A DNA stretch of 64,000 bases from a virus (IMGVR_UViG_3300020419_001132), one strand, 5' to 3'. Shown: positions 4,211 to 23,279, counted from the first letter of the stretch. A program made the numbers and translations. Notes: generated by a model not told the origin, from the letters alone.

Positions 4211-4466
4211 TTTTTGCTCCTTCTTGTGCCTTCTGTTGAGCGGCAACGGCTGTTAGAAAGGCTTCTAGTTTGGTATAAACGGTGCCTACTACAGTCATTT
4301 CGTTTGGTTTAAATGCACCTCTGCCACTTGCAACATCAATAATTTGTTTCAAATTATTTAAATCGGCAACGGTTAATTCAACTGGTCCTTCTGCTCCTTC
4401 TGGTGTAGAAGTTTGTTCTTCTACAGGTGCAACAGACTCAGCTGGTTTTTCTTTCTCGTCGGTCAT
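4203..4466 (-). CDS. Small acidic hypothetical protein
   Basis: GGAG SD and TAAATA element upstream. Confidence 0.6.
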   Translation of the reverse strand: MTDEKEKPAESVAPVEEQTSTPEGAEGPVELTVADLNNLKQIIDVASGRGAFKPNEMTVVGTVYTKLEAFLTAVAAQQKAQEGAKNA

Positions 4467-4503
4467 ACAAGTTTCTCCTTATATTATAATTATGACTTAA
4501 TAT

Positions 4504-4794
4504 TTACTTATATTTTAAATGTGGACAAGCTAAAGTGAAATACGATAGCTCTTTAGGTTCTTCAAAACCTACCTTTAAAGACTCTGACATGGTGTTTGAT
4601 GTATCAACATGTATTCCTCTTCCTATGTAAAACCTACCTTTAAGGTGGCTTTTAATCCATTTACCTATTGTGTGATCAAGGTTATACCTCATAGGAACAT
4701 GTATGTATTCAAAATGAGGAGGCGGATTATTCGGAGTTCTTACACCGAAGAAGTCTAAACGATTAGGTTTTTTAATTGTTAATTGCTTCTTCAT
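4504..4794 (-). CDS. Hypothetical phage protein
   Basis: ORF coupled to the VWA gene. Confidence 0.55.
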   Translation of the reverse strand: MKKQLTIKKPNRLDFFGVRTPNNPPPHFEYIHVPMRYNLDHTIGKWIKSHLKGRFYIGRGIHVDTSNTMSESLKVGFEEPKELSYFTLACPHLKYK

Positions 4795-6160: not shown

Positions 6161-6195
6161 GTTATGTTCCCTATTCAGTGCCTTATTATGTATAT

Positions 6196-6224
6196 ACTAT
6201 ACTATATTTAATGAAAGAAGTCAA
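6196..6224 (-). promoter_or_regulatory. sigma70-like promoter for the VWA gene
   Basis: TTGACT-17-TATAGT. Confidence 0.65.
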
Positions 6225-6269
6225 GAGAAATGGACATTTTTTGTAAGAGAAATGCCCAAAACTCATATA

Positions 6270-8151: not shown

Positions 8152-8388
8152 TTAAAAGCCTCGACCGCCGTCCATTTGTATTTCTATAGGTTGATCTTCT
8201 TGGGTATTTTTTTGAATAAGTTTTTCTAAATCGCCGTTTAACCTAGCTAAAACAATACCTAAAGTAAATGCTAACGTTTTAGCTTGAGAAATATCAAGTC
8301 TTACTTCATTAGACCTACTCTGATCTGCACCTTTTACCTGTTTTAAGAACTGTTCTAATGGTGCAGTATTAATTGGTTCTTTTTCCAT
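8152..8388 (-). CDS. Hypothetical phage protein
   Basis: ORF in operon. Confidence 0.55.
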   Translation of the reverse strand: MEKEPINTAPLEQFLKQVKGADQSRSNEVRLDISQAKTLAFTLGIVLARLNGDLEKLIQKNTQEDQPIEIQMDGGRGF

Positions 8389-8914
8389 TTGCTCTTCCTA
8401 ATGCTTCTCGCATTTCTATTTTTGTTTTGAAAGGCCCTTGGTAATCATAAGTTTCTAAAGTAATAAGTTTAGGACAAAAACTTTTCACCCAACCTTTATC
8501 AAATTTAATTATATAAAATCCTGCACAATATAAACTTTTTGACTTGTAACTTTTTGTAAATAATGGCAGTTTATTTTTTACATCATACAGTGGATTATAA
8601 GGAACAGTAGTTGTAGGAAATCCGTGGCATTCTTTGGTATCAATTACAGTAATTTGCAGTTTATTCCACTTTATTGGTTCCCCTATTGCTCCAGTTACAT
8701 CTCCTTCGCTATCAAAAAATCTTGTACCATTTGAATCGCTAAGTAGATATTTTTCATCTGAAAGAGTTAATGTTGCAACTTTTTGTCCGTTCTCTTCTAA
8801 TATCCAAAATTTGCCATCAACTATTTCTTTTGCAGTTATACTCATTATGTTTCTAACTCCTTTTCTATTATTCCTTCTTTTGTTAGTTGTTTTACTACGT
8901 CTTGATCCACACAT
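8369..8914 (-). CDS. Hypothetical phage protein (true start probably MSITAKEIV)
   Basis: AGGAG SD precedes the internal Met. Confidence 0.55.
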   Translation of the reverse strand: MCGSRRSKTTNKRRNNRKGVRNIMSITAKEIVDGKFWILEENGQKVATLTLSDEKYLLSDSNGTRFFDSEGDVTGAIGEPIKWNKLQITVIDTKECHGFPTTTVPYNPLYDVKNKLPLFTKSYKSKSLYCAGFYIIKFDKGWVKSFCPKLITLETYDYQGPFKTKIEMREALGRANGKRTN

Positions 8915-9114
8915 GAAACCATATGTGGTCTGTAGTCGCTTCCAAACTCTTCGTACAATTTAAACAATATTTTATTTCCGTTTAAGGTTGCATATCGCTT
9001 ACATTGATCTACTGAGGTGAAAGTTGGTTCGGTAAAGACATATGCCATTGGCGGTTCAACTCCTTGTAGTTGACTGTTTAGCAATGTCATTAGTGCTACA
9101 ATATAGACTGTCAT
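8845..9114 (-). CDS. Small exported/membrane-anchored protein with a Cys pair
   Basis: Hydrophobic N-terminus; FTSVDQC...VSC. Confidence 0.5.
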   Translation of the reverse strand: MTVYIVALMTLLNSQLQGVEPPMAYVFTEPTFTSVDQCKRYATLNGNKILFKLYEEFGSDYRPHMVSCVDQDVVKQLTKEGIIEKELET

Positions 9115-10100
9115 TTGTATCTTCCATTCAAAGGTTCAGCATATAGTTGTGCTTGTTCGCTTACTCTTTGTAAGTCCCACTTAGCACAGAATTTCATTAG
9201 TTTCATGCCTACTTGTGTTACTGATTTAGGGTTCTCTGTAGCATCTTCAACTACATCATTTATAATCGATCTAATGTTGCCAGGTTGTGCAGTCAAATCA
9301 CATAGTATTACATTACGATTGTAGTCATCTAGTACACGATGTTCTACACCTTCGTGATCAACCCACCTTTGTAACATCATATTATTCCAGTTATAGCCTT
9401 TTGTATCTTTATCTTCAAATGCCTCTTGTAAGCCTACTTTGTTTCTTGTGCCTTTTTTACGTACACCAGGAAAAGCACTAAACACATTATCACTAGTATC
9501 TCCTCGCATACACTTTTCAAATAACATATATGCAGGATTAGGTGCAGGCTTAGGTTCTCCTGTCTTTTTGTCAAGCACGGGTTTCTTTTTCTTATCGTCA
9601 AAGTAACCTTCATGTGTAATAATTGTATTGCTAACACCGTTATATTGTTTTACATTAGGTGCAATAAGTTGTGCAAAGTCTCCATCAGTTGAAATAATAA
9701 CATGATTATCATTTGGATGTGCTTGTACCCAACCTGCAATTAAGTCATCTGCTTCTAGTTGCGGATTTTGTAATACAGTACAGTTTGTCTTTTCTTTTAC
9801 AAAGTCTTTAAATAGATCAAATGTTTCCCAAAAAGTTTTATTTTCTTCTTGCTCTGCTTCTGTCAGTGCCTCTCTAGCATCTTGTCTATTTCGTTTGTAA
9901 GGCTCGTAAAAGTCTTTACGCCAACTACGACCTTCTAAACAGAATACAACATGATCACCATCAAAGTCTGCCCATGCTTTTTTTACACCACTAAGTGAAA
10001 TGTGCAAAGCCATGCCAATCTTTGTGTCAAGGTCTCCCCTTACTACATGTCTTGCACGAAAAAATGTATTAGCAGTATCAACTAGTATATATGTGGCCAT
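9111..10100 (-). CDS. rnh: RNase H / 5'-3' exonuclease (T4 rnh-like FEN family)
   Basis: LVDTAN, LEADDLIA, ISTDGDFAQL, GDTSDNV motifs. Confidence 0.85.
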   Translation of the reverse strand: MATYILVDTANTFFRARHVVRGDLDTKIGMALHISLSGVKKAWADFDGDHVVFCLEGRSWRKDFYEPYKRNRQDAREALTEAEQEENKTFWETFDLFKDFVKEKTNCTVLQNPQLEADDLIAGWVQAHPNDNHVIISTDGDFAQLIAPNVKQYNGVSNTIITHEGYFDDKKKKPVLDKKTGEPKPAPNPAYMLFEKCMRGDTSDNVFSAFPGVRKKGTRNKVGLQEAFEDKDTKGYNWNNMMLQRWVDHEGVEHRVLDDYNRNVILCDLTAQPGNIRSIINDVVEDATENPKSVTQVGMKLMKFCAKWDLQRVSEQAQLYAEPLNGRYK

Positions 10101-10485
10101 TTAACTCTTCTCTTACGTATCGTTGCAATTCGTGATCTCCCACGTCTTCGGGTATTTCGTTCTTGTAAAAAAGTCTATAACTATCAGAACCATATTTCCC
10201 AACTCCATATAACATAGTAGCATCTTCTCCGTCCCATGTCAAGTAACTTTGGGTCATTTTTCTTATAGAATTTTCACGCCTGTTATAAAATCCTAAACTT
10301 CTGATAACTTCTACAACATCTTCTTTTTTACTTTTAAGAAATGATTCAGCAGTAGGCCATTTTGCAAAGAATACAGGTAGTACACGTTTCACTTGAACTC
10401 TACCTGTTTGATTTAGACAAATTACACCTACAAAGTGTTGCCATAAATTTGCAACCTGTTGTTGCACCATTAGATCTTCTCTCAT
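10078..10485 (-). CDS. HhH-GPD DNA glycosylase, MBD4-like stand-alone domain
   Basis: CLNQT, FFAKWPT, LGFYNRR, LYGVGKYGSDSY helix-hairpin-helix. Confidence 0.8.
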   Translation of the reverse strand: MREDLMVQQQVANLWQHFVGVICLNQTGRVQVKRVLPVFFAKWPTAESFLKSKKEDVVEVIRSLGFYNRRENSIRKMTQSYLTWDGEDATMLYGVGKYGSDSYRLFYKNEIPEDVGDHELQRYVREELNGHIYTS

Positions 10486-10802
10486 TAGTCTTCTCTTTTA
10501 TATACAGGCCTTTGACCAAGTACCATAGGAACATCTAAATTAGGTGTAATTTCCACTTCTGCACAACTAAGATACTCTATATTAACATCGCCAAATTTCT
10601 TTTTGCTATGGTCTAATAATCCATTAAGCAATTTTGCTTCATAGTCGTTATAAAAAATTACACATTCATCGTATGAAGGAAACTGTAGTTGATAACTAAA
10701 TAGGTTTTCAGTTTTATTAGGGTTATCTATATAGCTTACTGTAGCTAAAAATATTATAGCAAAAAATTTCATGTTAGCTAACCTCTGATTTTTCTTTATC
10801 AA
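10485..10802 (-). CDS. Small exported protein with a Cys pair
   Basis: MKFFAIIFLA signal-like start; FPSYDEC...LSC. Confidence 0.5.
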   Translation of the reverse strand: MIKKNQRLANMKFFAIIFLATVSYIDNPNKTENLFSYQLQFPSYDECVIFYNDYEAKLLNGLLDHSKKKFGDVNIEYLSCAEVEITPNLDVPMVLGQRPVYKRED

Positions 10803-11172
10803 TTGGCTTCACATTGATATATCCTATATCTCTTTGTGTGTCAATGCCATCTTCTTCTAGAATTTGAATTGCAATAGTTCTAAACCAACCGTTCACAATT
10901 TCTTCATTAGTTTCACCTGAGTAACCTGCATCAAGTAGTTGTTCAATAAACTCGTTATTCCAATCGAGCTCGAAGAATCCGTTCTTGATGTTCTCAGGAT
11001 TTACTTGAGTATCAAGAACACCTACCCAAGGTTTACCTTCTTTTGTAGCTTCATCTTTTTCTTTTTGTAGAATAGCTCTACGTTGTTCTTCTGAACTAGT
11101 TTCAGGTGCAGTTTTTTCAATCTTAGGTGTAACTCCTAATATTGTTTTTAACTTTTGCCATTTATTTTCCAT
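10774..11172 (-). CDS. Hypothetical phage protein (start MENKWQK)
   Basis: AAGGA upstream of the ATG at 11172. Confidence 0.6.
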   Translation of the reverse strand: MENKWQKLKTILGVTPKIEKTAPETSSEEQRRAILQKEKDEATKEGKPWVGVLDTQVNPENIKNGFFELDWNNEFIEQLLDAGYSGETNEEIVNGWFRTIAIQILEEDGIDTQRDIGYINVKPIDKEKSEVS

Positions 11173-11367: not shown

Positions 11368-12297
11368 TTAAGTTCCTATTGCATTACCAAACAAGTATAC
11401 ATGTACTCTTGCCGCTACATTATATCCACGTTTAAATGCCTTTTCAGCAACTTTGCCTGCACCTGCTATTTGTTCTTCTTCTCTAGCACCTGTTGGCATA
11501 ACCCATATAGGCCAATCTACACCTTCTGCTTTAAACAGTTTAATAACTTCTTCCATTTCTTCCCACTCTCTATCGTCTGGACCAACTACAAACTTTAATT
11601 GTCCTTTATCAGAAAGTTCTCTGTACTCTGCTACTATTTGAGGCTTGATTGCTTTTTCTCTTTTCTCACCTGCAACTGACCATAGTTTAGGACTACAACT
11701 AAAAAATATTTCTGTGTCTATCCTGTTTACCCATTCCTTAAACGGATCTCTTAACTTTTGTGTTCCGTTAGTTTCAAATGTCATACTGCCCGGCAAGTTA
11801 CCTTGTCTTTCAAGTTCTTCATATATTCCGACAGTTGCTGTCTGTCCAGTTACCATTAAAGGCTCTCCGCCTGTAATACATAAGTGTTGACTTTGTCCTG
11901 TTACTGGATGTTTAAATAATCCTTCAGGATTACTTTCGTTTTTCAATATGTCAATAATTTTATTCGCCATTACTGTCGGCGTTTCTTGACCCATCAAGTC
12001 TTTAAACTTCTTTGCCCATGTGTAACTACTATCACAACCTTTATCCCACACAGGCAAGTCTTCAACTTTTTTTACTGTTGATACATCAAAATCTTGAAAA
12101 GGTAATTCATATGTATCTGGATTTGTAGGATCTAATTGTCCAAATCCGTTGCATTGTAAATTACATAAAAAGAAACGTATCCAAGCCGTAGGCACTCCTG
12201 TGTAATGTCCTTCGCCTTGAATACTATGAAATATTTCTGAATAGTAAAACTTCTTTTCTACAGTTTTACCAAATTCATGTTGTGCTAATGCAGACAT
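11368..12297 (-). CDS. queE: 7-carboxy-7-deazaguanine synthase (radical SAM)
   Basis: SEIFHSIQGEG, IRFFLCNLQC...CD, ITGGEPL, ETNGT, SCSPKL, RVHVYLFGN. Confidence 0.85.
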   Translation of the reverse strand: MSALAQHEFGKTVEKKFYYSEIFHSIQGEGHYTGVPTAWIRFFLCNLQCNGFGQLDPTNPDTYELPFQDFDVSTVKKVEDLPVWDKGCDSSYTWAKKFKDLMGQETPTVMANKIIDILKNESNPEGLFKHPVTGQSQHLCITGGEPLMVTGQTATVGIYEELERQGNLPGSMTFETNGTQKLRDPFKEWVNRIDTEIFFSCSPKLWSVAGEKREKAIKPQIVAEYRELSDKGQLKFVVGPDDREWEEMEEVIKLFKAEGVDWPIWVMPTGAREEEQIAGAGKVAEKAFKRGYNVAARVHVYLFGNAIGT

Positions 12298-12497
12298 TAT
12301 ACTATCTCTTCTACAATGCCTAACACTTCAGCTAGTACAAAACCAATACCTGCAAACATCATTAAGTAACCTGAGTAAGCAATAACTATATCTGTATAGT
12401 CGTTTGCCGCCCAAAGTTCATAACCTGCGTAAGCCAATACGCCGCCTGCTAATATTCTTAAAACACTCTTTACCATACTTACTGTAAAATGATTCAT
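12297..12497 (-). CDS. Small 2-TM membrane protein
   Basis: Two hydrophobic stretches. Confidence 0.55.
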   Translation of the reverse strand: MNHFTVSMVKSVLRILAGGVLAYAGYELWAANDYTDIVIAYSGYLMMFAGIGFVLAEVLGIVEEIV

Positions 12498-12508
12498 AAT
12501 ATATCTCC

Positions 12509-13198
12509 TTATTTGTTACAAGCAAATTCTTGTTGTAGTTTAATATTATCCATAAACTCTTTTTTAGTACCTGGATCGTCACCAAATGCTCCACGTAGTA
12601 CAGTTGTTTGTGTTAAACTACTATGAGCACCAATACCTCTATTCTCACAACAACCGTGTGTTGCTTGTAAATAAACACCTACATTAGGACTATTAGTTGC
12701 ATGTTGTATTTTATTAGCAATAACGTTATTAAGTTCTTCTTGTAGTGTTCCACGTCTAGCACACCATTGTGCAATACGTGTATATTTAGAAAGTCCTATA
12801 AGTGTTTCTGCGGCAATTATGCCAATATATGCAACACCGCTTACTGGTTGATGATGATGCGAACACATACTTTTAATTTCGCTTCTTACAACTAACATTC
12901 CTTTATAACTTTCTGTACTGTCATTAGGAAATGCAGTTGCATTAGGCATAGGATTATACCTACCACTCATCAGTTCATTTATATACATTTTTGCTAGTCG
13001 CCTGCCAGTATCCATACTGTTAGGATCATTAAACCTATCAATTACTAAGCCATCTAGTACAGATTCAAACTTAGGAGTCAATTCTTCAATTAGTGCCTCT
13101 TTGTCGCCTTTTTGTAAGACCTCAGAAATGTTGTCACCTGCCCAATAGCGGATGCCAGCATCTTGTAGTCTCATGATAATTTCTTTACTTTTACTCAT
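12509..13198 (-). CDS. folE: GTP cyclohydrolase I
   Basis: SMCSHHH, GLSKYTR, LQEEL, HGCCENRG; the GGAG SD fits the second ATG (13198). Confidence 0.92.
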   Translation of the reverse strand: MSKSKEIIMRLQDAGIRYWAGDNISEVLQKGDKEALIEELTPKFESVLDGLVIDRFNDPNSMDTGRRLAKMYINELMSGRYNPMPNATAFPNDSTESYKGMLVVRSEIKSMCSHHHQPVSGVAYIGIIAAETLIGLSKYTRIAQWCARRGTLQEELNNVIANKIQHATNSPNVGVYLQATHGCCENRGIGAHSSLTQTTVLRGAFGDDPGTKKEFMDNIKLQQEFACNK

Positions 13199-13241
13199 TT
13201 TCATTCTCCGAGTTATAGACGAGGATGTCTATTATGTTATT

Positions 13242-13270
13242 ATTATACAATATATTTAGGCGATTGTCAA
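13242..13270 (-). promoter_or_regulatory. Consensus sigma70 promoter for folE, with a nested CTAAATA late element
   Basis: TTGACA-17-TATAAT exact. Confidence 0.8.
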
Positions 13271-13317
13271 TCAAAACATTCGCCCAAATTAAATTTTTGC
13301 TTGTATTTAGGTTTTTC

Positions 13318-13554
13318 TTACCCATTCAATACAGTTTTGTCGGAACTTTCAGAAAAATATTTGTCCAACATAGATAGTCTATCGTCTGCCGCCGCTAGTT
13401 TGTTTAATTCTTCTATCACTGCTTCTGTAATATCAGAATGTTCACCTATTCCAGCGGGCATAGTTTGATAGACTTTAATATTGGCCATATGGACCGCTAT
13501 CTCCCCCTCTGCCTGCTTTCTAGCCGCAATCAATAAAGCTTCACCTGGCTTCAT
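13318..13554 (-). CDS. Small hypothetical protein
   Basis: Coupled to the HIT gene. Confidence 0.55.
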   Translation of the reverse strand: MKPGEALLIAARKQAEGEIAVHMANIKVYQTMPAGIGEHSDITEAVIEELNKLAAADDRLSMLDKYFSESSDKTVLNG

Positions 13555-13907
13555 CCATTACTCTCCTTACGTTTTAGGTAATTTCCTTTGTTAGGAATTA
13601 CGTTTCTGACCCCACCTCTGGGATCCTCGATATCCCCCTTATTACGGGGAATTAAGTGTACATGAGGATACATCACAGTTTGTCCTGCGGCCTCACCTAC
13701 ATTTTGTCCTATATTAAATCCATCACATATATTATCTTGTACCCATTCATATCCCCAGCCGTATGCGGCTTTATAACAATATGCTAAACACTCCCATGTT
13801 TCTTCTTTAGGCACAAACAAAATATGTCCGTCTGTGACCGGAAATCCGTCTCTATAAACTGTATAATGCTTCGTATCTATTACTATGTCAGTCCAAGGTT
13901 TATCCAT
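13551..13907 (-). CDS. HIT-family nucleotide hydrolase
   Basis: GHILFVPK, GFNIGQNVGEAAGQTVMYPHVHLIPR. Confidence 0.85.
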   Translation of the reverse strand: MDKPWTDIVIDTKHYTVYRDGFPVTDGHILFVPKEETWECLAYCYKAAYGWGYEWVQDNICDGFNIGQNVGEAAGQTVMYPHVHLIPRNKGDIEDPRGGVRNVIPNKGNYLKRKESNG

Positions 13908-13912
13908 AATAT

Positions 13913-14251
13913 TTAATTTCCTACAAAAAAGTTAACAATGCCTGTTGCAAAAATAAAAACTGCTACTCCATTAATAAAAACTAGTGCTCTGTCATGCCAA
14001 AGCATACCTACTACTCCCCAACCCATTACTCCACCAAGATGAAAGAATAAGTTATATGGCTCCATACCTCCAGCACTGGTCAATACCATTCCAATAAGAA
14101 TAATAAAACTAGAAGCCCATTTAATATACCAACTTAGATCGTACTTAGGTGTAATCTTTTTAAACACTCTACTAGAGTTTAACTCCTTAATCTTATCGTC
14201 TAAATTAGGAACCCACTTTTTTATTTCTTTTTCTATATCTTTTTTATTCAT
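13913..14251 (-). CDS. Small multi-TM membrane protein
   Basis: Three hydrophobic helices. Confidence 0.6.
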   Translation of the reverse strand: MNKKDIEKEIKKWVPNLDDKIKELNSSRVFKKITPKYDLSWYIKWASSFIILIGMVLTSAGGMEPYNLFFHLGGVMGWGVVGMLWHDRALVFINGVAVFIFATGIVNFFVGN

Positions 14252-14777
14252 ATGTTCCTACATTTTCCCAAGGGTAAACTAACCAAACATCTTCTTCTGC
14301 CTTGTTCACCTCATGACAAGAATAGTGTGTCTTAAATTTAAAGTCACTAGCTAAATTATCTGTTATAACCGCAAATCTTACATTTTCACACCAAACATTA
14401 CGCCAATGATCATCTTCAGGGTAACAACTACTTTGCCAGTCTTCAACAATCCAATTGAATGTTGATCCTGTATCGTTAATATCGTCAACAATTAATATAT
14501 TCTTTCCTTGTCCGTTACTGTCTGCATTAGGTGTTCCAAATGCATCTTCTGCCATCCAAGCATTAGATTCGTTTGCATATCCACTGTCACGTAAACTAAC
14601 TTTTATTGCTTCACAACGTATGCCGGTCATATTAGAAATAATTGTTGCAGGAACATTGCCGCCTCTTGTTATTCCTACAATATAATCAGGTGTCCATTGA
14701 TCCTTATACATTTGATTTACAATACTTGTGCTACAATTTTCTATGTCTTTCCATGTATAGAAATGCTTTTTAATCAT
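14244..14777 (-). CDS. Type I phosphoribosyltransferase (purine PRT-like)
   Basis: VGITRGG, ILIVDDINDTGST PRPP-binding loop, WLVYPWE; likely start MIKKHF. Confidence 0.85.
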   Translation of the reverse strand: MIKKHFYTWKDIENCSTSIVNQMYKDQWTPDYIVGITRGGNVPATIISNMTGIRCEAIKVSLRDSGYANESNAWMAEDAFGTPNADSNGQGKNILIVDDINDTGSTFNWIVEDWQSSCYPEDDHWRNVWCENVRFAVITDNLASDFKFKTHYSCHEVNKAEEDVWLVYPWENVGTYE

Positions 14778-14778
14778 A

Positions 14779-15339
14779 TTACCAAACCCAAGATACAAAA
14801 CTGTACCTTGTCCCTTCTGTTATTAATGTTACTTTGTGTGAGTACATAAATGTACTTGGAAATATAAGAATATCTCCTGCTCCTAGCTCAACTTTATTGT
14901 CGTCTAGCATAATAAAATCGCCGCCTGTAAAGTTATCGTTTAGTAATCCTACTACAGACAGGGTAGGAATACCTTTTCTTTCACCGTCGAACATCTGTTG
15001 AACTCGATCGGCATGCATATGCATCTGTGTATTTTCATCATACTTATTAAACCTAACATCCGTAAATCCGTCGAATCCTTGAAGTGTAGGTAATGCTATA
15101 TCTTTTTCTATGTATTGTATTAGACTATCTTTAACAATATGATGTAGTTCTTTATAGTGAGGCACTACTTGGTGAGATATAGAAAGTTCAGTATCTGTAC
15201 TAAATTTCTCTTTTTCACTATGGGAATAAAATGTATGCTTTTGCCAATCATCTTGGAAATTATCAATTATAGTATTGCATATGTTTACAGGAACTTTTTG
15301 TTTTTGAACGACTACATAAGACATAAGATCTTTCTTCAT
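14779..15339 (-). CDS. 2OG-Fe(II) oxygenase (prolyl-hydroxylase-like)
   Basis: HAD, LNDNFTGGDF, FPSTFMYSHKV...GTRYSFVSW. Confidence 0.85.
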   Translation of the reverse strand: MKKDLMSYVVVQKQKVPVNICNTIIDNFQDDWQKHTFYSHSEKEKFSTDTELSISHQVVPHYKELHHIVKDSLIQYIEKDIALPTLQGFDGFTDVRFNKYDENTQMHMHADRVQQMFDGERKGIPTLSVVGLLNDNFTGGDFIMLDDNKVELGAGDILIFPSTFMYSHKVTLITEGTRYSFVSWVW

Positions 15340-15704
15340 TATACATCGCCCTCCTTCTTTTTATTAAAGTCTGACTTACACATATCATAAAATAATTTAA
15401 AATTTCTCCAAGCCTTATCTAAACCTGGATAATCTTTAGACATTTCTTCCACATCATTTTTAAAATTAGTTTCTGTATAGGATGCTTCTCCGGGACTAAT
15501 ATTCACTGTGAACTCTGATCCAGTATCATTTGTTCCATATGTTAAAGGATCAAACCTTCCATCTCCATAAGATACACCGCTTGTTCCTCCGCCTGTTGAT
15601 GTTACATCGTATGTAATAGTATCGCCTAAATCTAAATTGAGTTGATCGATATTAACAGTTACAGTATCTTCCAAGTTTATTTTGTAAGTGGTATCATCTC
15701 CCAT
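15339..15704 (-). CDS. Hypothetical acidic protein
   Basis: ORF in operon. Confidence 0.55.
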   Translation of the reverse strand: MGDDTTYKINLEDTVTVNIDQLNLDLGDTITYDVTSTGGGTSGVSYGDGRFDPLTYGTNDTGSEFTVNISPGEASYTETNFKNDVEEMSKDYPGLDKAWRNFKLFYDMCKSDFNKKKEGDV

Positions 15705-16753
15705 TATATAGCCTCATATAACTGCTTACCAGAAAAGAAATCTGTGTTAAGTTTTTTTACTTGTTTATCTAATGGTACAAGAAAGTCTTCGTAGTGTTCC
15801 ATGTATTCGGATATCTGATTAACAACTTCTGATCTATGAATTTTGTAACTTGCAAAACTTTCTGTCCATTTGCTAGGATATTTAAAATCTGGCAAAGCCA
15901 TTTCTTCGTAGCTAAGTCTGTCTGGAACCATTGGTATTGCACCAACAACTGCTCCTTCGTACCAACTAATACCTAGTGTTTCTTGTAAGTTTGCACTAAA
16001 CACCATCTTAGCTTCTCCTAGCAAGTTATGATATTGATTCTTATCAAGTTGTTTTTCTTGACAAACAACAAAATCGTATTGTGGTAACTGTGTTGCTAAA
16101 TCACTGAAGATTTCTAGTTGTTTCTCTGGAGCAATTCTATGTGGAAAAAGTATTAAATTACGTTTCTGCATTCCTTTATATGGAAGCAATTCTTCACGTA
16201 AATACTCCATAGGCCACCCGACTCGAACACTTTTTTCATCTAATTCTATTCCTTCTAACATAAGTTCATTACTAAACATATTAATATGAAACTCTGTAGC
16301 AAAGAAGTTGTGATTATAGCATTCATACATACTAGCTTCAGCTTTTCTAACCCAAGGTTTGTTACCAATTAGTCTACCTAAAAAGTCGTGCGGATCATAA
16401 CTACCAGCATGCCACATGCCACCAATGCTAATGTCAACACCCAATAATTCTGCCATATAACGCAATTGAATAACTGTAGGATTCCAGGCATCGGTGTACA
16501 AAAAATAATCATCGTCTTTAACCTTGCCATTGCAGAACATTTCTCCTATTTGTTCGAGTTGTTTACTCTTATATATGTTCGTTCCGCCAAAGTTAAGAAA
16601 CGCCCCAGGCGTTGTTGCTTGAGGAGTCTCTCCTCCACTTATAGTGACGACTTCCTCATTAGTAGACCGTTTAAGTTGCTTAGGAAGATGCTCCTTCCAC
16701 TGTTTAGTATACCTAGTGTCTACTGCTTCAATGTCTACTATATAAATGGTCAT
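15704..16753 (-). CDS. GT-B fold glycosyltransferase (GT4-like)
   Basis: FPHRIAPEKQ, SANLQETLGISWYEG (ExxGxxxxE), PDRLSYEEM. Confidence 0.8.
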   Translation of the reverse strand: MTIYIVDIEAVDTRYTKQWKEHLPKQLKRSTNEEVVTISGGETPQATTPGAFLNFGGTNIYKSKQLEQIGEMFCNGKVKDDDYFLYTDAWNPTVIQLRYMAELLGVDISIGGMWHAGSYDPHDFLGRLIGNKPWVRKAEASMYECYNHNFFATEFHINMFSNELMLEGIELDEKSVRVGWPMEYLREELLPYKGMQKRNLILFPHRIAPEKQLEIFSDLATQLPQYDFVVCQEKQLDKNQYHNLLGEAKMVFSANLQETLGISWYEGAVVGAIPMVPDRLSYEEMALPDFKYPSKWTESFASYKIHRSEVVNQISEYMEHYEDFLVPLDKQVKKLNTDFFSGKQLYEAI

Positions 16754-16935
16754 CGTCTTTTATTATTCCTCCATTTTTTTCTAGTTCTAGACCAAGCCAT
16801 ATAACTTTCCCAAGTTCTGTCGCCTTTTTTATAAAGGCTGGCTTCTTTAAAAACTTTACCTTCGAGTCTACAGTAATCTCGGAATGTGTCGAGATCGTCA
16901 AAAATTTTCCTAATAAGGGGATTCTTAATTGCCAT
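16750..16935 (-). CDS. 61-aa basic hypothetical protein (start MAIKNPL)
   Basis: AAGGA SD upstream of 16935; ATGA overlap with the glycosyltransferase. Confidence 0.55.
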   Translation of the reverse strand: MAIKNPLIRKIFDDLDTFRDYCRLEGKVFKEASLYKKGDRTWESYMAWSRTRKKWRNNKRR

Positions 16936-16951
16936 GATAGTTCCTTGTATA

Positions 16952-17440
16952 TCATTGTGTGGGGTAATAAATCGAACAGCCGTTTTCACCGTCTTCAGCA
17001 ACGTCAATCTCTACAAATCGGCCTGGGTATTTTGCAGAAATCTCTTGATATAAGTCATCAGCAATCATTTCGCATGACTTATGATTTAATTCTATTACAT
17101 CTTCATTGTATAGTTTTTCCATCCATCGTTTAAACTGAATAAATTCAATATCACGATCATCATGGAATACTTCTATTCGCACTTTGAAGTGGAATATATG
17201 TCGATGTGCAACGCCTAAGAAGCTCACGTCGTCCCAGTCTCCTGTTGCAAGTTTTGGATCATCTTTAGCCGCTGGATACAAATGTATTCCTTCTTTTCTA
17301 AATGTTACCCAAATACTTCGCTTTGCATTTTTCACTGCATCTTCCATACCTTTTACCTTCTCCATAAGTTCTTCAAACCGAGCTTCTCTCTTATTGACTA
17401 AGTTTATTATATTATCTTTAGATGATTTTGTCAAGTCCAT
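16952..17440 (-). CDS. QueD-like T-fold protein with an LxxxHRHxF motif (DpdL-like, putative CDG decarboxylase)
   Basis: EGIH.YP, FLGVAHRHIFHF, RDIEFIQFKR, SCEMIADDL, EDGENG; lacks the QueD CxxxHGH motif. Confidence 0.7.
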   Translation of the reverse strand: MDLTKSSKDNIINLVNKREARFEELMEKVKGMEDAVKNAKRSIWVTFRKEGIHLYPAAKDDPKLATGDWDDVSFLGVAHRHIFHFKVRIEVFHDDRDIEFIQFKRWMEKLYNEDVIELNHKSCEMIADDLYQEISAKYPGRFVEIDVAEDGENGCSIYYPTQ

Positions 17441-17933
17441 AATCTTTCCATTCTGTAAATTTATCTCTATGCATCAAATCATGTAGACTATGACACCAAA
17501 CACCAGGATTAGATGCCTTAAAGTCTTTATCGTCAATTTTTAACATAGTGTTATAGTTCCATTGTTTTATATAAGGAACAGGTACACGCAGTTGCGGAAT
17601 AAAATTATCATATTCGCAAAGTCCACCCTCTAAAAATTCTTCTGCGTATTTTATAGGAATATCTAGAGAGCATAACTTACCAGCTGACAAAAATGCTTTA
17701 ATAAGATTCTCCCATGATTCCCATTCTTTATCATTCTCTGGATGGAATGAATGATTTGCACCAAAGAATATATGTTCACATTGATTTTCATCATAATGTT
17801 TTTGTATTTCGTGAGGTTCGTGTACTCCTGTAACAAATAGTGTTTTTAATCCATATGCAGGAGTCTTTTCTACTTCATTACCTATGAACATTTTAACATC
17901 AGTTTGTGTGCCGTTTTCGTAATCTCTATTCAT
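17418..17933 (-). CDS. Unknown protein coupled to the DpdL-like gene
   Basis: Overlaps the DpdL-like start; HIFFGANHSF and KIDDKDFKASNPGVWCH segments. Confidence 0.6.
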   Translation of the reverse strand: MNRDYENGTQTDVKMFIGNEVEKTPAYGLKTLFVTGVHEPHEIQKHYDENQCEHIFFGANHSFHPENDKEWESWENLIKAFLSAGKLCSLDIPIKYAEEFLEGGLCEYDNFIPQLRVPVPYIKQWNYNTMLKIDDKDFKASNPGVWCHSLHDLMHRDKFTEWKDYGLDKII

Positions 17934-18139
17934 TTGCTTATCATCACTAAAATTGCAGTAAAGAAAAGTGCAAAGAACACAACCGTATAGTCTTTTTTTG
18001 GTTCTATTTTACAAGCCTCCTCAAACTCACTGTAATCTAAAGGCATATAATCTCTGTTCCATGCATCTCTTCTTGTATCTTTCTTACGTTGATCGACTTT
18101 GATAGATCCTGGGTCTACTTTATAATCTTCCTTTTTCAT
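17930..18139 (-). CDS. Small protein with a C-terminal TM helix
   Basis: Hydrophobic C-terminus. Confidence 0.5.
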   Translation of the reverse strand: MKKEDYKVDPGSIKVDQRKKDTRRDAWNRDYMPLDYSEFEEACKIEPKKDYTVVFFALFFTAILVMISK

Positions 18140-18534
18140 CTATCATTTCCTTTCATTGCAAAATACAATCCACCAACCCATAGCATAACATGAAAGTTAT
18201 CATAAAGGATAACATCCATAAAGCTCTCAGGTTGTCCTACCCAAATCACTCCAGTCATAATACATCCAATAGTAAATCCACTGAACTTAGTTATTAAATT
18301 TCCTACCCAGGGCCATAATCTTTTCCAAAGTGCAGAAATTCCTCCGATTAGCAGGCCAAACCCTGCTCCTAGTTCACCTAATATTACAAATACCCAAACT
18401 ATATAAGGCAATTCGAAACTTTGTGCATCTTCAATTGAGATAGGTAGTTTAATAAGTCCTTGTTGAATAAACACTATTGCAAGAGGTACTCTTAGCAACC
18501 AACCAGGTAAGTGTTCGTTTATTTTCTGTATCAT
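18136..18534 (-). CDS. DoxX-family membrane protein
   Basis: WLLRVPLAIVFIQQGLIKLP...ELGAGFGLLIGG. Confidence 0.7.
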   Translation of the reverse strand: MIQKINEHLPGWLLRVPLAIVFIQQGLIKLPISIEDAQSFELPYIVWVFVILGELGAGFGLLIGGISALWKRLWPWVGNLITKFSGFTIGCIMTGVIWVGQPESFMDVILYDNFHVMLWVGGLYFAMKGNDR

Positions 18535-18713
18535 TTTCTTTTTATATGATCCTTTAGTGCTAACTTTTGTTTCTTTAATTTTACTAGATGTTCTTTAGTT
18601 TCCCAACTTCTATCGTAATTTCTTTCTGCTTCTACTTGCTCTACTTTCTTATGAAAGTAATCAAACATATTTTGCATCTTTTTAGCCTTCTTGGTGGCTC
18701 TTCCAGTACTCAT
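18531..18713 (-). CDS. Small coiled-coil protein (YdcH/DUF465-like)
   Basis: HKKVEQVE...LKKQKLALKD pattern. Confidence 0.5.
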   Translation of the reverse strand: MSTGRATKKAKKMQNMFDYFHKKVEQVEAERNYDRSWETKEHLVKLKKQKLALKDHIKRK

Positions 18714-20173
18714 TATATCTCCTCAAACAAATTATTGAACTGCGAACTTGCATTTACAGTTCTCTTTCCAGTAGCACCTCTTGTTCCAATAATCGACATC
18801 CAAAACTTTGAAAACTCTTCTATCACAAGATTTGCTTCATCTCTGCTACTTGTAGCAAAAATAGCTTCAACGACATCTTTGAAGTATACTCTATCAAATC
18901 GTTCGTCTACTAACATAGCAGGAATAGTATTATTGTCGTATTTTCTATTTGCTTCTTGTACTGCATTAATGTGCATCCATACATTGTGTCCCATCATTAT
19001 TGCATAAGAAAAACTATCCCAACTAGTTTTACCTTCTTTTCCTATTTTATTTAGGTCTCCTGGACCATATATACAAATGTCTTTAGCCATTAATTCTGCA
19101 GTAATAGGAGAGTCTAAGAAACTTGTATGTTTTCCTTCTCTAACAAATGCAGTACCAAACGGCGTAGTATCTGTAGATAAACTTTTGTCATCTATACTAG
19201 GAACCATTCTGTATACCCATTTAGATCTATCTTGGGTTTCTAGTTCGCAATATATTTGTCCATTCGCTGTTGCTAAAAACGGACTAGCACAGTCAAATGT
19301 TACAGTAAAGTTTTCGTTATGATACTTACGAACTGCTCTTTGTATATCAGTAAGTAGTGTAGCCCATTCTAGTTTGCTTGTGCCTAAAAAGTGCATTACA
19401 TCATGTATACCTTTTTCTAGTAATCCGTCAAATCTTAGTGCAACTAGTCGTTTCAAAACAAGATGCACATCACACATATTCTGTCCACCCATTGACCATC
19501 CATTAAAGTGATCATTAGGATATTTTTTAGGATCACAATAGTCTTTCATCTGATTATACCAGTCATCTGCATCAGCATGATTTTCGCCTTGTAAAACATT
19601 TAGGAATTTACAAGCACCAGATCTATTTTTCATCCAATAATCGTTATTGATACGTGTGGCATTTACTGCATCTTGGTAGTTGTCAATACCAGTAGCTTTT
19701 GCACCCTCGGGTGAACGTGAAACCCAAGCCGGAATATCTAATATCATTCCATAGTCCATGTAAGCATCCATCCATCGTAGAACACCATCACGTTTCTTTT
19801 GTGCTTTAGGACAATTAGGATCTTTCCAATCGCCTTCCCAAACACCTTTACCTATTTGAAATCCACCAGAGTCTCCTAATATCCAACTGTTATTTCTATC
19901 TCTGTTCCGAATCATATCTTCTTTAGGAGAATCTTTGTTAATATCTAGCTCAGCATGACCTGCAGAATACAAAGTCCATTTGTACTGAAATTGACCCTGT
20001 GTTGGATTAATGTAATTAAGACCTTCTACACCATTTTTTAAGTTACTAGGTATTCTTGACGTTTCAACATATTCATCAAAACGTTGTTTTCCAACATATG
20101 TAGCATAAAATCCGCTTAAAGCTGGAAGAAATCTAGCATAATCTTTTTGTTGTGCAGTTAAGTCTGTAATCAT
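18713..20173 (-). CDS. dpdA: TGT-fold 7-deazaguanine DNA transglycosylase (DpdA/DpdA2-like)
   Basis: DSGGFQ, LDIP, VLQG, GWSMGG, HFLG, TFDCASP; lacks the C-terminal Zn-binding CxCxxC of tRNA TGTs. Confidence 0.8.
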   Translation of the reverse strand: MITDLTAQQKDYARFLPALSGFYATYVGKQRFDEYVETSRIPSNLKNGVEGLNYINPTQGQFQYKWTLYSAGHAELDINKDSPKEDMIRNRDRNNSWILGDSGGFQIGKGVWEGDWKDPNCPKAQKKRDGVLRWMDAYMDYGMILDIPAWVSRSPEGAKATGIDNYQDAVNATRINNDYWMKNRSGACKFLNVLQGENHADADDWYNQMKDYCDPKKYPNDHFNGWSMGGQNMCDVHLVLKRLVALRFDGLLEKGIHDVMHFLGTSKLEWATLLTDIQRAVRKYHNENFTVTFDCASPFLATANGQIYCELETQDRSKWVYRMVPSIDDKSLSTDTTPFGTAFVREGKHTSFLDSPITAELMAKDICIYGPGDLNKIGKEGKTSWDSFSYAIMMGHNVWMHINAVQEANRKYDNNTIPAMLVDERFDRVYFKDVVEAIFATSSRDEANLVIEEFSKFWMSIIGTRGATGKRTVNASSQFNNLFEEI

Positions 20174-20430
20174 GAATCAGCTCTCCACCTATACACTTCT
20201 GGGATACAAAAATTTCTGCCCCATTTACAAGTATTATCTTCTTTGCATACACGTTCGTGTTTACTGTTTTCCCAACAATCACCTGTTAGTCCTCGCATCT
20301 TTACAAGTTTCGCAAATCCATCATCTATTGATAGCATAATAATAGAAGGAAAAATTAAGCCCATGGTTACAATCCAAAAGAATGCCCAACCAAAGCCTTT
20401 ATTATGATATGGTTGATTTGGATCACTCAT
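20170..20430 (-). CDS. Small membrane protein with a Cys-containing tail
   Basis: TM helix followed by four Cys. Confidence 0.5.
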   Translation of the reverse strand: MSDPNQPYHNKGFGWAFFWIVTMGLIFPSIIMLSIDDGFAKLVKMRGLTGDCWENSKHERVCKEDNTCKWGRNFCIPEVYRWRADS

Positions 20431-21158
20431 TATTTGCTCTGAGCTGGTAGTATATAGTCGTATTTTACCATACCACTATCTACTGAAATTTGCATAGCAC
20501 CTTGATCACTCAAACTCATAGTTAAATTACCGTCTAAGTTAAGTATAGATTGAACTTGTGCGACAGGCCAACTCCAAGTATGTGCTAGTGTACCTTCTAT
20601 TCCGTGATGGAAAACAAATTCACCTGCATGTGTGCTTTGATCACCGAACGCAAAAACAAGATTACCATCTTTTGTACTAACATTAAAGTTAGGCTCTTCT
20701 GAATGTGCCGCACTCATTAGTTTCATTCTTGCAATACTTGCCACACTTGGGGCAAATGTAACTTGCCACTGGGCACCTTTAAATTTTACTGTTTTAAGTT
20801 TTTCGTCAATGATTGCTTTGTTCATAAAACGATAATCATTTTGGAAATCACCAGCCGCATTTTCAAAATGAATATGTGTAGGAACAGTTTCTCCATTTCT
20901 TTCTGCTTTTACAACTTCTATCTTTGCATCTTTTTGATATTCTGGATTCTTTAAATGCAATGCAAGTTTGTCTAAATTTGGCATACCAAAAGTATTTTGA
21001 AATTCGCCTACTGCTGACTGTGCTTCAGCAGATAGTATAACACTACGGTCTTCAGCCATAGAGTCAATCTGTGTTCCTTCTTCGTTTGTAACTTTTACCA
21101 AGCTCAAGAACCCTAAAGCATGAGTGTGTGCTACAATATCTTGTAAGATGTCTTTCAT
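20430..21158 (-). CDS. DNA polymerase sliding clamp (gp45-like)
   Basis: Size (242 aa), alternating beta/alpha pattern, C-terminal YDYILPAQ, replication context, sigma70 promoter. Confidence 0.65.
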   Translation of the reverse strand: MKDILQDIVAHTHALGFLSLVKVTNEEGTQIDSMAEDRSVILSAEAQSAVGEFQNTFGMPNLDKLALHLKNPEYQKDAKIEVVKAERNGETVPTHIHFENAAGDFQNDYRFMNKAIIDEKLKTVKFKGAQWQVTFAPSVASIARMKLMSAAHSEEPNFNVSTKDGNLVFAFGDQSTHAGEFVFHHGIEGTLAHTWSWPVAQVQSILNLDGNLTMSLSDQGAMQISVDSGMVKYDYILPAQSK

Positions 21159-21178: not shown

Positions 21179-21207
21179 ATTATAGTATCTAAGTGGTTGA
21201 AAGTCAA
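21179..21207 (-). promoter_or_regulatory. sigma70-like promoter for the sliding clamp
   Basis: TTGACT-17-TATAAT. Confidence 0.75.
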
Positions 21208-21989
21208 GTGTTTTTCCTAACTTTATTGTTATATTCTACCGCTGATCTTATGATATTTAGATCGATGCCGGCATTGTCTGCTGATTTTAGGATAGCATTT
21301 GCATCCTTTGGAAAGCAATGACCACCAAAGCCTCTTTCTTCTGTGACCTTGGTATGACTATGTCCTATTCTAGGATCTTCGCCAATTTCTTGAGCTACTT
21401 TATCGAAGTCTATATTTAATTTTTTACACATATCAAATATCTGATTAAAAAAACTTACCTTAGTAGCTAAAAATGCATTGCGAAATACCTTTGCAATTAT
21501 TAATTCTTTAGGTTCGCTTATAATAATGTTTTTGCCACAGTTATTAAAAACTTCAGTCCAATACGGAATATCATCGCCACCAAGAGATATATCTTCACAA
21601 TCTAATAAATCTTTTGTTGCAGTTTTAGATCTCAAATACTCAGGACTAAAAGTTATGTTATGTTTAGGAAATTTTTCTTTTAAATTAAACCAACCATCAA
21701 TACTAATAGTGCTTTTTATAAGTACTGGAATGTTTTCTTTTGTTTGAGATAATACTTCAAAAATGTTTGACATATTACATGCACCATCATAGTCTTCAGG
21801 AGTGCTTACACAAACTATTACACTTTCTGAATTATAATCACTAATCCTACCTAAAAAAGTTTTCTGTTTGCCTAAAATTCTATAGTATTCTGGATCAACA
21901 ATTTGTGTCATGTAATCAAAATCGTTAAGTAATTTTTCGTGAGCTTGTCCTACAGACCCATATCCAGCAATTATAATGTATCCGGTCAT
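21204..21989 (-). CDS. UDP-glucose/GDP-mannose dehydrogenase-like protein lacking the C-terminal domain
   Basis: GYGSVG, VCVSTP, IKSTI, FSPEYLR, catalytic GFGGHCFPKD. Confidence 0.8.
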   Translation of the reverse strand: MTGYIIIAGYGSVGQAHEKLLNDFDYMTQIVDPEYYRILGKQKTFLGRISDYNSESVIVCVSTPEDYDGACNMSNIFEVLSQTKENIPVLIKSTISIDGWFNLKEKFPKHNITFSPEYLRSKTATKDLLDCEDISLGGDDIPYWTEVFNNCGKNIIISEPKELIIAKVFRNAFLATKVSFFNQIFDMCKKLNIDFDKVAQEIGEDPRIGHSHTKVTEERGFGGHCFPKDANAILKSADNAGIDLNIIRSAVEYNNKVRKNT

Positions 21990-22156
21990 TCAGTATCCTC
22001 TATGCAGACAAAGCCTACACCTGGTTCTGCCTCTTGTTCTTCTATGATAGCATTTTTCCAGCATTCGTATGAGCCTGTATAATAATTAATTGATTCTCCG
22101 GTTACAGTTCCGTTAGCAAGAATAGTAACCATTACAAGTATGTAACCATATATCAT
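21986..22156 (-). CDS. 56-aa exported/membrane peptide with a Cys pair (not in the ORF track)
   Basis: MIYGYILVMVTILANG...YECW...GFVCIEDTE; ATGA overlaps on both sides. Confidence 0.55.
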   Translation of the reverse strand: MIYGYILVMVTILANGTVTGESINYYTGSYECWKNAIIEEQEAEPGVGFVCIEDTE

Positions 22157-22557
22157 TCGCAAATCCTCTTTCTTAAATCAGTTGTACTAAATCTATGATC
22201 TCTTTTGTTAAAATATAATTCAATTCCTAAACGTCTACAAATATCTTTTCCAGTAAAGTCTTTATCTTTATATTCTTCACCTAATATACGTATATCTATT
22301 TGATACATTTCAAGTATGTCTTCTACATCTTTTTCTGTTGTGTAAGGAATAATTTCGTCAACATATTTTACACCTTTTAATTGGGTATAACGTTCTACAA
22401 TAGTTTGAATTGGCTTGTTCTTTTCTGGTCTGTCTATGGTAGGATCTAATTGTAGTCCTGCAACCAAATAATCGCATTTATTTTTTGACTCTCTAAGCAT
22501 TGCAATGTGGCCTGCATGTAGCAAATCAAATGCACTAAAGGTTATTCCAACTTTCAA
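22153..22557 (-). CDS. Cytidylyltransferase (TagD/glycerol-3-phosphate CTase-like)
   Basis: FSAFDLLHAGH (HxGH), YVDEII, RDHRFSTT; TTG start. Confidence 0.85.
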   Translation of the reverse strand: MKVGITFSAFDLLHAGHIAMLRESKNKCDYLVAGLQLDPTIDRPEKNKPIQTIVERYTQLKGVKYVDEIIPYTTEKDVEDILEMYQIDIRILGEEYKDKDFTGKDICRRLGIELYFNKRDHRFSTTDLRKRICE

Positions 22558-23279
22558 TTAGCTACTCCTGTTTTTTGTAGATTTTCTAAGATTTCTTTAG
22601 TCTCTCGCCAGTTCTTAACTTGTTTAGCAACTCCACCTCTTTCTTTGACTGCATAAGCTAAACTAAAATCGTTGCCATCAGGATCCATTCTATCTCCAAA
22701 GAAGAATAATTTTTCGTCGTCTTTAAAATGACTTACAATTTGTCTTTTATCTTTTCCTTTAGATATAATATCTATACCTGTTTCTCCGCCTACTACTGCA
22801 CTTACATCTGGAAATTTATTGTTTACTGCTTCAGCTATGTTTACACGTTCTTCACTTTGCATATCCCAATAATAGTAGTCTTTTCTTTGTACTTTATCAG
22901 CTTTTCTACCAACTACGGAAAAGTTTATCATACCTGGACGATGTTCTATGTGCTTACCTGTTTTAGTTTGGTATTCACTTCCTTGCAAATGGTTTTCTAA
23001 AAATGCCAATAGTTCAGCAGATGGTTTCCAGTTGTTTGTGTATACATTTTGTTGCTTTTCCCATATGTCATTACCATTACAGTTGTAACATTTGTTTACA
23101 CTTTTACATATTTCTATTCCTAGTTGCTCTACAGTTTTAGGATTATCACTACCTGTAACTAAAGACACAGGATTTTGTTGTGCAAAATACATAAACCATA
23201 ATGCAAATTCAGATTGTATTCTTTTACGGCTTGGAGTTAGTGTGCCGTCTACGTCAAATAAGAAATGATTCCTATTCAC
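22554..23279 (-). CDS. HAD-IIB phosphomannomutase-like protein
   Basis: FDVDGTLT, LVTGSD, IEHRPGMINFS, GGETGIDI, FFGDRMDPDGNDF. Confidence 0.8.
   Translation of the reverse strand: MNRNHFLFDVDGTLTPSRKRIQSEFALWFMYFAQQNPVSLVTGSDNPKTVEQLGIEICKSVNKCYNCNGNDIWEKQQNVYTNNWKPSAELLAFLENHLQGSEYQTKTGKHIEHRPGMINFSVVGRKADKVQRKDYYYWDMQSEERVNIAEAVNNKFPDVSAVVGGETGIDIISKGKDKRQIVSHFKDDEKLFFFGDRMDPDGNDFSLAYAVKERGGVAKQVKNWRETKEILENLQKTGVAN

Follow-up and report, generated by a model that had tools for sequence, protein, structure and literature searches.

The stretch of DNA analysed here, which we call the window, comprises 64,000 nucleotides of the virus IMGVR_UViG_3300020419_001132. It is AT-rich (GC ~35%), and nearly all of its genes lie on the minus strand. 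The region from 9 to 26 kb is a replication region, containing a family B DNA polymerase (polB), a 242-aa putative clamp and an RNase H/5'-3' exonuclease, and the 7-deazaguanine genes are embedded within it on the minus strand (11368-20173) together with the gene of a glycosyltransferase (GT). This locus is very probably a QueC-independent, DpdL-type 7-deazaguanine DNA-modification module of an uncultured marine jumbo phage. The DpdL-type deazaguanine pathway is already known; the GT as a fixed member of it is new here. The genes that matter most to the argument are the following.

18713..20173, minus strand: DpdA-like DNA transglycosylase (486 aa), a divergent member of the TGT superfamily (DSGGFQ, FDCASP; hhalign to E. 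coli Tgt)
17418..17933, minus strand: u171, an orphan conserved protein of 171 aa, always between dpdA and dpdL in the lineage and kept in related contigs
16952..17440, minus strand: DpdL-type T-fold protein, a QueD paralogue of 162 aa (LGVAHRHIFHF, homology; PHROG 17812)
15704..16753, minus strand: GT4-type GT-B glycosyltransferase, 349 aa, the second gene downstream of the T-fold gene (fold, Ex7E)
14244..14798, minus strand: purine (xanthine/guanine-type) phosphoribosyltransferase (PRTase; PF00156 at 2.8e-14, NF006613 at 3.4e-13)
12509..13204, minus strand: FolE, GTP cyclohydrolase I (PF01227 at 2.5e-36, NF006824 at 1.6e-38)
11368..12297, minus strand: QueE-like radical SAM enzyme, a 7-carboxy-7-deazaguanine (CDG) synthase (PHROG 2076 at 5.7e-55; E. 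coli QueE by tblastn at 3.7e-7)

A reading made from the sequence alone (the sequence-only reading) had named QueE, FolE, a T-fold protein with LxxxHRHxF, a DpdA-like protein and a GT at this locus. All of them are present on the minus strand, and their list, order and coordinates were correct. It had also placed the GT two genes downstream of the T-fold gene in a tight run, which is borne out by intergenic gaps of at most 5 nt throughout the stretch from dpdA to 13318.

We surveyed the lineage in 80 IMG/VR contigs with 70 distinct dpdA alleles (80-100% amino-acid identity), counting the presence of a gene only among contigs that reach far enough. The gene order polB-clamp-dpdA-u171-dpdL-(small ORF, for open reading frame)-GT-...-PRT-...-folE-queE is constant in the lineage. 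All 41 related marine jumbo-phage contigs that could show the GT have it (41/41), and the same completeness was observed for DpdL (48/48), u171 (69/69), the PRTase (34/34) and FolE (33/33), with QueE in 32 of 33. Outside the lineage, PA5oct and ACP17 share the order dpdA-GT-dpdL, and the window GT is 44% identical to EST35_0317 of PA5oct and 42% identical to ASD50404 of ACP17. Xanthomonas X1 has folE-...-GT-dpdA-dpdL-queE, while dpdL and the GT are adjacent in Phosso and 3 kb apart in BCSR5. Four metagenomic loci encode GTs that are 27-35% identical, each beside DpdL and/or DpdA: L096 (dpdL-GT-x-dpdA), L098 (queE-folE-dpdL-x-x-GT-dpdA-CE4 deacetylase-methyltransferase-PTPS), L099 (isomerase, UDP-GlcNAc 2-epimerase, folE, dpdL, GT, x, radical SAM, ..., PTPS) and L101 (dpdA-x-[PRTase+DpdL fusion]-GT-epimerase/dehydratase). 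We thus have a GT that is a fixed module member in at least eight phage lineages besides that of the window, and this is our main new result. The co-occurrence of GT and DpdA, which the sequence-only reading had proposed as a check, came out strongly, with 41/41 in the lineage and further cases in PA5oct, ACP17, X1, L096, L098 and L101. The GT homologues of PhiXhv/Ep032 (24% identical) were not counted as the same system: they lie beside GlmS and an LmbE-type deacetylase, without DpdL. In L092 (PhiXhv-15), GlmS and an LmbE/BshB-like deacetylase were observed at 4861-6989 with a distant GT homologue. Two more GT contexts were left out of the count for want of DNA or of sufficient length.

The promoters of the window add to this picture. 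Perfect TTGACA-17-TATAAT sites number three in the 64 kb, against 0.06 expected, and all three are on the minus strand. One lies at 50879-50907, and the other two stand directly before module genes.

17406..17434, minus strand: perfect sigma-70 promoter before the DpdL core (12/12 match)
13242..13270, minus strand: perfect sigma-70 promoter before folE (12/12 match)

Because a perfect sigma-70 promoter stands directly before the DpdL core, dpdL and the GT gene likely form one transcription unit. Judged from these sites, DpdL and the GT are probably co-transcribed and the other promoter probably drives folE-queE. Translation of DpdL probably begins downstream of the promoter, at 17365 or 17347, rather than at 17440.

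By its sequence, the 162-aa T-fold protein is DpdL. Residues 75-85 read LGVAHRHIFHF, which fits the DpdL signature LxxxHRHxF that stands where QueD has CxxxHGH (PMC10516641). In tblastn comparisons the window DpdL matched that of ACP17 at 1e-34 and CGPG_00067 of phiST at 5e-8, and a profile of the DpdL family retrieves DpdL at nine loci, with the phiST match at 6.7e-42. The alignment shows invariant H79, H81, F83, H93 and E99 and an S-C-E at 122-124. The protein had no match in Pfam or NCBIfam, its sole match being PHROG 17812, of unknown function, and the profile retrieved from the PDB only a weak PTPS match (2dj6 at E 0.17). DpdL is the proposed CDG decarboxylase that forms 7-deazaguanine, an activity unproven even for phiST and ACP17; phages with DpdL are defined by the missing QueC, and DpdL and DpdA alone failed to reconstitute the modification in E. 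coli (PMC10516641). The statement in the sequence-only reading that DpdL carries LxxxHRHxF and decarboxylates CDG matches that paper, where decarboxylation stands as a proposal. In the window, DpdL co-occurs with FolE, QueE and DpdA, and QueC and QueD were not seen there.

The 486-aa protein belongs, from its sequence, to the TGT superfamily and is DpdA-like. The motifs DSGGFQ (residues 101-106) and FDCASP (293-298) are invariant across the homologues of the window, PA5oct, X1 and ACP17, and hhalign aligned the protein with E. coli Tgt at a probability of 88% (E 3e-6), with the QG, GGxxxG, LGxx and FDC blocks in register. Its Atlas features are nearest the TGT cluster (0.94) and the DpdA cluster (0.89), and the DpdA-related protein of L101 matches Pfam TGT at 6e-4. 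The window protein itself had no match at E <= 0.01 in Pfam, including TGT (PF01702) and DpdA (PF23859), none in NCBIfam or PHROGs and none among PDB sequences by phmmer or profile. Since its alignment to DpdA3 of phiST (CGPG_00065) is only marginal (hhalign 45%, E 2e-4, 148 columns), we filed it as a DpdA-like member of the TGT superfamily, probably of a subfamily distinct from DpdA3.

The 349-aa protein is, on the strength of its predicted fold, a complete GT4-type GT-B enzyme. An AlphaFold2 (AF2) model built from a 62-sequence alignment has a predicted local distance difference test (pLDDT) score of 95.2. In a structure comparison with VIA, this model superposed on sucrose-phosphate synthase (SPS; 6kih) with Z 26.0 and a root-mean-square deviation of 3.2 over 315 residues, and on BshA and MshA with Z ~25 over the full length; Foldseek gave 1.9e-10 to BshA. 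The E-x7-E motif is conserved, with E258 nearly invariant and E266 invariant. The window GT had no match in Pfam, NCBIfam or PHROGs, while 37 of the 62 family members match PF00534 (Glycos_transf_1) and the family profile matches GT4 chains of the PDB at 1.5e-5. The family is large, with >8000 90%-identity clusters close to the window GT and 1174 50%-identity clusters. We also considered the queuosine mannosyltransferase QTMAN/GTDC1 as an identity for the GT and rejected it, as none of the 62 family members matched PF12038 (QTMAN_N) at E <= 0.01. T-even phages encode the GT-B enzymes AGT and BGT, which use a UDP-sugar donor and act on 5-hydroxymethylcytosine in DNA. The window GT is like them a phage-encoded GT-B enzyme, but they belong to other GT families and act on a pyrimidine hydroxymethyl acceptor, and neither was among its top 50 structural matches.

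The small protein u171, whose ACP17 counterpart ASD50402 is encoded just upstream of dpdA, had no match in Pfam, NCBIfam or PHROGs. Its AF2 model has a pLDDT of 89, and fold searches of the PDB, the AlphaFold database clusters and Atlas gave no convincing relative. A weak match to a QueE-like partial barrel recurred (Z 5.5-6.1, TM 0.60); the iron-sulfur cysteines are lacking in u171. CGPG_00066 of phiST was tried as a homologue of u171 and rejected on comparison.

QueE is matched only partially, below cut-off, by the NCBIfam QueE models. By tblastn and motif scan, neither QueC, QueD, QueF nor any QueC-like sequence was found within the 64-kb window. This absence does not equal absence from the genome, as the relatives are jumbo phages of ~350 kb and a 256-kb contig is rated 72% complete. 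A PTPS gene lies 50 kb from dpdA in one of five long relatives, and two PTPS genes lie 55 kb from the module in PA5oct. The earlier claim that queC, queF and a canonical queD are missing holds for the window and says little about the genome as a whole, of roughly 350 kb, which probably encodes QueD outside the window.

Three known systems help to interpret the module. The Cellulophaga phage phiST (FolE, QueD, QueE, DpdL, DpdA3; PMC10516641) has in common with the window FolE, QueE, an LxxxHRHxF DpdL, a TGT-superfamily transglycosylase, the lack of QueC and a position beside replication genes. Its DpdA3 has 259 aa and is marginally alignable with the 486-aa window transglycosylase; phiST has no homologues of the GT, u171 or the PRTase, whereas the window has no QueD. 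The Acidovorax phage ACP17 and the Pseudomonas jumbo phage PA5oct share the dpdA-GT-dpdL core, with DpdL 53-59% identical and the PA5oct DpdA 36% identical. In addition, ACP17 shares u171 and PA5oct shares the PRTase, and the polB...RNaseH region is syntenic with that of PA5oct. Their hosts and genome sizes differ from those of the window, and QueD is within the module in ACP17 and 55 kb away in PA5oct. The DNA of PA5oct is resistant to restriction at G-containing sites and carries a modified G of undetermined structure that is sensed by END nucleases (PMC12191111). The third system, that of huimycin and dapiramicin, is likened by chemistry and not by sequence: HuiG of Kutzneria albida, a GT4-type enzyme, places GlcNAc on the 2-amino group of a 7-deazapurine derived from FolE, QueD and QueE (PMC7439116; bioRxiv 2026.04.15.718813). 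Huimycin differs in that it is a secondary metabolite made from the free O-methylated preQ0 base, needs QueC and involves no transglycosylase. It and the same linkage in the dapiramicins were the only precedent for N2-glycosylation found in the literature searched.

The genes beside the GT bear on the sugar. In L098, a CE4 polysaccharide deacetylase (10303-11073) directly follows dpdA, and in L099 an FdtA-like isomerase and a UDP-GlcNAc 2-epimerase occupy 4316-6026. An NAD epimerase/dehydratase lies by the GT in L101 and also in PA5oct. The tailoring genes near the distant GTs suggest N-acetylhexosamine (HexNAc) donors and deacetylation to an amino sugar. The window has its own block of nucleotide-sugar genes.

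21204..23279, minus strand: nucleotide-sugar genes, between polB and the clamp (PF00984 at 2.2e-25, PF01467 at 2.3e-12, PF03332 at 3.5e-25)

This block encodes a PMM-like HAD-IIB protein, an RfaE-II/TagD-like nucleotidyltransferase (TIGR02199 at 1.9e-19) and a truncated UDP-sugar dehydrogenase (UGDH) of 261 aa without the C-terminal domain. Some relatives lack the block, which may supply the sugar donor of the GT.

The gene identities, folds, motifs, synteny and co-occurrence were established in this analysis, and they can be read as a pathway. FolE would convert GTP to dihydroneopterin triphosphate (H2NTP), a QueD encoded elsewhere in the phage or the host would form 6-carboxytetrahydropterin (CPH4), and QueE would lead to CDG. 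DpdL would then process CDG, by the published proposal through decarboxylation to 7-deazaguanine, and the divergent DpdA-like enzyme would swap guanine in DNA for the deazapurine. The retaining GT4 enzyme would move a hexose or HexNAc from a nucleotide sugar to the deazaguanine, either as a free base or after insertion, and the acceptor with chemical precedent would be the 2-amino group. The final DNA base would be a sugar-bearing 7-deazaguanine. Since tailoring and donor-synthesis genes recur beside the GT, the sugar appears to be a lasting part of the product. That it stays in the product is also suggested by the probable co-transcription of the GT with DpdL and by the unsuccessful E. coli reconstitution from only DpdL and DpdA.

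It is very probable that the module places some form of 7-deazaguanine in DNA independently of QueC. The reactions, the acceptor, the donor and the sugar in the virion are what we infer, and to the whole pathway, including the sugar-bearing 7-deazaguanine in DNA, we assign a probability of about 45%. A slightly more tentative proposal takes in the other phages: virion DNA of the lineage, which is very abundant in the sea, and of the cultured phages PA5oct, ACP17, X1, Phosso and BCSR5 might carry glycosylated 7-deazaguanine with a sugar tailored in each lineage (HexNAc deacetylated to hexosamine, uronate, epimers), and the GT and the QueE-fold-like u171 might be the missing factors for DpdL reconstitution. 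As the sequence-only reading had supposed, the literature searched holds no description of a glycosylated deazaguanine in DNA.

Several observations weigh against a sugar-bearing base. The nearest folds of the GT (BshA, MshA, SPS and OtsA) act on small molecules, not on DNA. The GT is acidic, with an isoelectric point (pI) of 5.1, which is weak evidence because DpdA is likewise acidic, and isoelectric points do not tell whether the acceptor is DNA or a small molecule. Since 7-deazaguanine has no hydroxyl group, any choice of acceptor atom is conjectural. No QueD was found in the window or in four of the five long, incomplete relatives. In addition, a GT is missing from phiST, RHph_I1_18 and at least five further phages with DpdL, and because the GT-less phiST carries plain deoxy-7-deazaguanine (dDG), the GT is not needed for deazaguanine insertion as such. 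The GT is also tied more tightly to DpdL than to DpdA, which lies 170 kb away in Phosso; this tighter tie fits a precursor-level role. Together with the kinship to small-molecule folds, it agrees equally with a GT that acts on DNA and with one that acts on a precursor or the free base.

In a first alternative, the DNA contains plain dDG as in phiST and the GT, though part of the module, leaves no sugar on it. The GT might instead produce a glycosylated intermediate of passing existence or a metabolite that assists the DpdL step, or it might glycosylate a protein or small molecule. The 100% dDG that phiST makes without a GT, the tight tie of the GT to DpdL and the small-molecule GT4 enzymes as closest folds all agree with it. 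Pterin glycoside synthesis follows the same logic of a T-fold enzyme and a GT4 enzyme, and the tetrahydrobiopterin (BH4) glucosyltransferase 5zes is among the Foldseek matches. However, the deacetylases, epimerases and donor-synthesis genes by the GT point to a finished, tailored glycoside and not to a transient one, and a glycosyl intermediate in CDG decarboxylation is without precedent. We consider this alternative rather unlikely.

A second alternative moves the chemistry to the nucleotide level, as in tubercidin synthesis: the PRTase would join CDG or 7-deazaguanine to phosphoribosyl pyrophosphate (PRPP), DpdL and the GT would act on the nucleotide or nucleoside, and the product would go to the polymerase or become a soluble, huimycin-like glycoside outside DNA. 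The PRTase is invariant in the lineage (34/34) and also occurs in PA5oct as EST35_0321. In L101, positions 1534-2457 encode a natural fusion of a PRTase domain (PF00156, residues 15-121) and a DpdL domain, beside the GT and DpdA, and the tubercidin pathway itself consists of CDG, a PRTase and a decarboxylase, without QueC. The HIT protein of the window, a Nudix protein from a different GT context and the GMP reductase that two relatives encode also fit this route. On the other hand, the DpdA-like transglycosylase is always present and requires a free base, the PRTase may merely salvage the guanine released by base exchange, the fusion is confined to a single cluster in the protein collection, and the modules of ACP17 and X1 show no PRTase. 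A nucleotide-level route is therefore improbable in our view.

Third, a QueC-like enzyme elsewhere in the genome could finish a known product, namely preQ0, 7-amido-7-deazaguanine (ADG) or a derivative, with the GT unrelated. A candidate comes from the relative G002, in which a PP-loop ATPase of 247 aa that carries SGGPDS and, at its C-terminus, a Cys cluster (L089, 970-1713) is encoded ~27 kb from dpdA. It scored 22.2 bits on Pfam QueC (PF06508), which is at threshold and covers the C-terminus only, and it is flanked by radical SAM/SPASM genes, so that it sits among radical SAM tailoring genes and outside the module. QueC had no match in the complete genomes of PA5oct, ACP17, RHph_I1_18 and phiST, yet all four keep DpdL, whose phages are defined by lacking QueC; this makes the explanation very improbable. 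Lastly, the GT might glycosylate another modified base, for instance the kind of hydroxymethyl pyrimidine that T-even phages have, and lie among the replication genes by chance. This idea can draw on the GT-B nature of phage DNA glucosyltransferases and on the ThyX and nucleotidases of the window, but it deserves hardly any credence: the strong Pfam matches of the window include no homologue of a hydroxymethylase-type thymidylate synthase, and the adjacency of the GT to DpdL/DpdA is kept in more than 9 lineages with GT identities of 24-47%.

The remaining genes of the locus and its surroundings are as follows.

20430..21158, minus strand: 242-aa putative sliding clamp, between polB and dpdA (PHROG 12062, function unknown; in 77 of 80 loci and PA5oct)
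Minus strand, listed between u171 and the 486-aa gene: DoxX-like membrane protein
16750..17007, minus strand: small basic ORF of 85 aa, pI 10.4, between dpdL and the GT (seen in 40 of 80 related loci; no match in a family search)
14779..15339, minus strand: 2-oxoglutarate (2OG)-Fe(II) oxygenase (PF13640 at 3.8e-10)
13551..13907, minus strand: HIT-family nucleotide hydrolase/transferase (PF01230 at 5.7e-10; in 33 related loci)

A DUF6552 protein is also encoded in the stretch from folE to the GT. The nearby 2OG oxygenase, which the sequence-only reading had considered as part of the modification, lies outside the conserved module. Among the 80 loci it was found only in the near-identical contig L007; about one relative in four has a non-orthologous 2OG gene in this variable slot, and 2OG genes are numerous in the phage of the window. 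The slot, which lies between the GT and folE, is occupied in a few relatives by a Vut_1/YhhQ-type transporter, of the queuosine-precursor importer family, or by a GMP reductase/IMPDH-family enzyme (L078, 7037-7693; L051, 15120-16163). Almost all genes of L007 share 97-100% identity with those of the window, but its QueE (8153-9083) is only 36% and its FolE 90% identical. Two QueE types (~36% and ~80% identical) alternate in the lineage, which points to cassette replacement.

The 242-aa protein upstream of dpdA is predicted as a trimer with a pLDDT of 90, and no clamp family matched it in family searches. A C-terminal LF motif is conserved in the DpdA homologues of four lineages, and dpdA follows the putative clamp gene. 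When the 242-aa protein was modelled in three copies together with residues 420-486 of DpdA, the predicted complex scored 0.58 against 0.02 for the best control. Of 78 solved complexes, 51 reach the pass mark of this score, as do 2 of 108 mismatched pairs, and passing scores of 0.60 or under were seen for only 5 of the 78 solved complexes but for all 4 mismatches that passed. The runs share at least 43% of contacts, and the pLDDT of the partner is at least 43. As clamp-peptide complexes are textbook cases, resemblance to solved structures may inflate the clamp-DpdA score. The modelling gives weak support to binding of the DpdA C-terminus to the putative clamp.

By megablast, the whole locus had no match among phage records. 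A short HhH-GPD/EndoIII-like protein (135 aa, 10078-10485 of the window) lies near the module in 28 relatives, and it is of interest in that END defence nucleases sense modified bases through inactive EndoIII domains. Other jumbo-phage cargo of the window includes ClpB, DnaJ, a tryptophan halogenase, Bax1-I, PsiE, PhoH, ThyX and two peptidoglycan-binding proteins.

To our knowledge, all known DNA glycosylations sit on pyrimidines. If the module does place a sugar-bearing 7-deazaguanine in DNA, it would be the first purine in DNA known to bear a sugar and would found a new chemical class of DNA modification, with a sugar tailored in each lineage like the glycans on hydroxymethylcytosine. It could explain why reconstitution with DpdL and DpdA failed in E. 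coli, and it would matter for the evasion of restriction and CRISPR and for type IV and END-type defences, as well as for biases in the sequencing of marine viromes and for enzyme tools that label purines.

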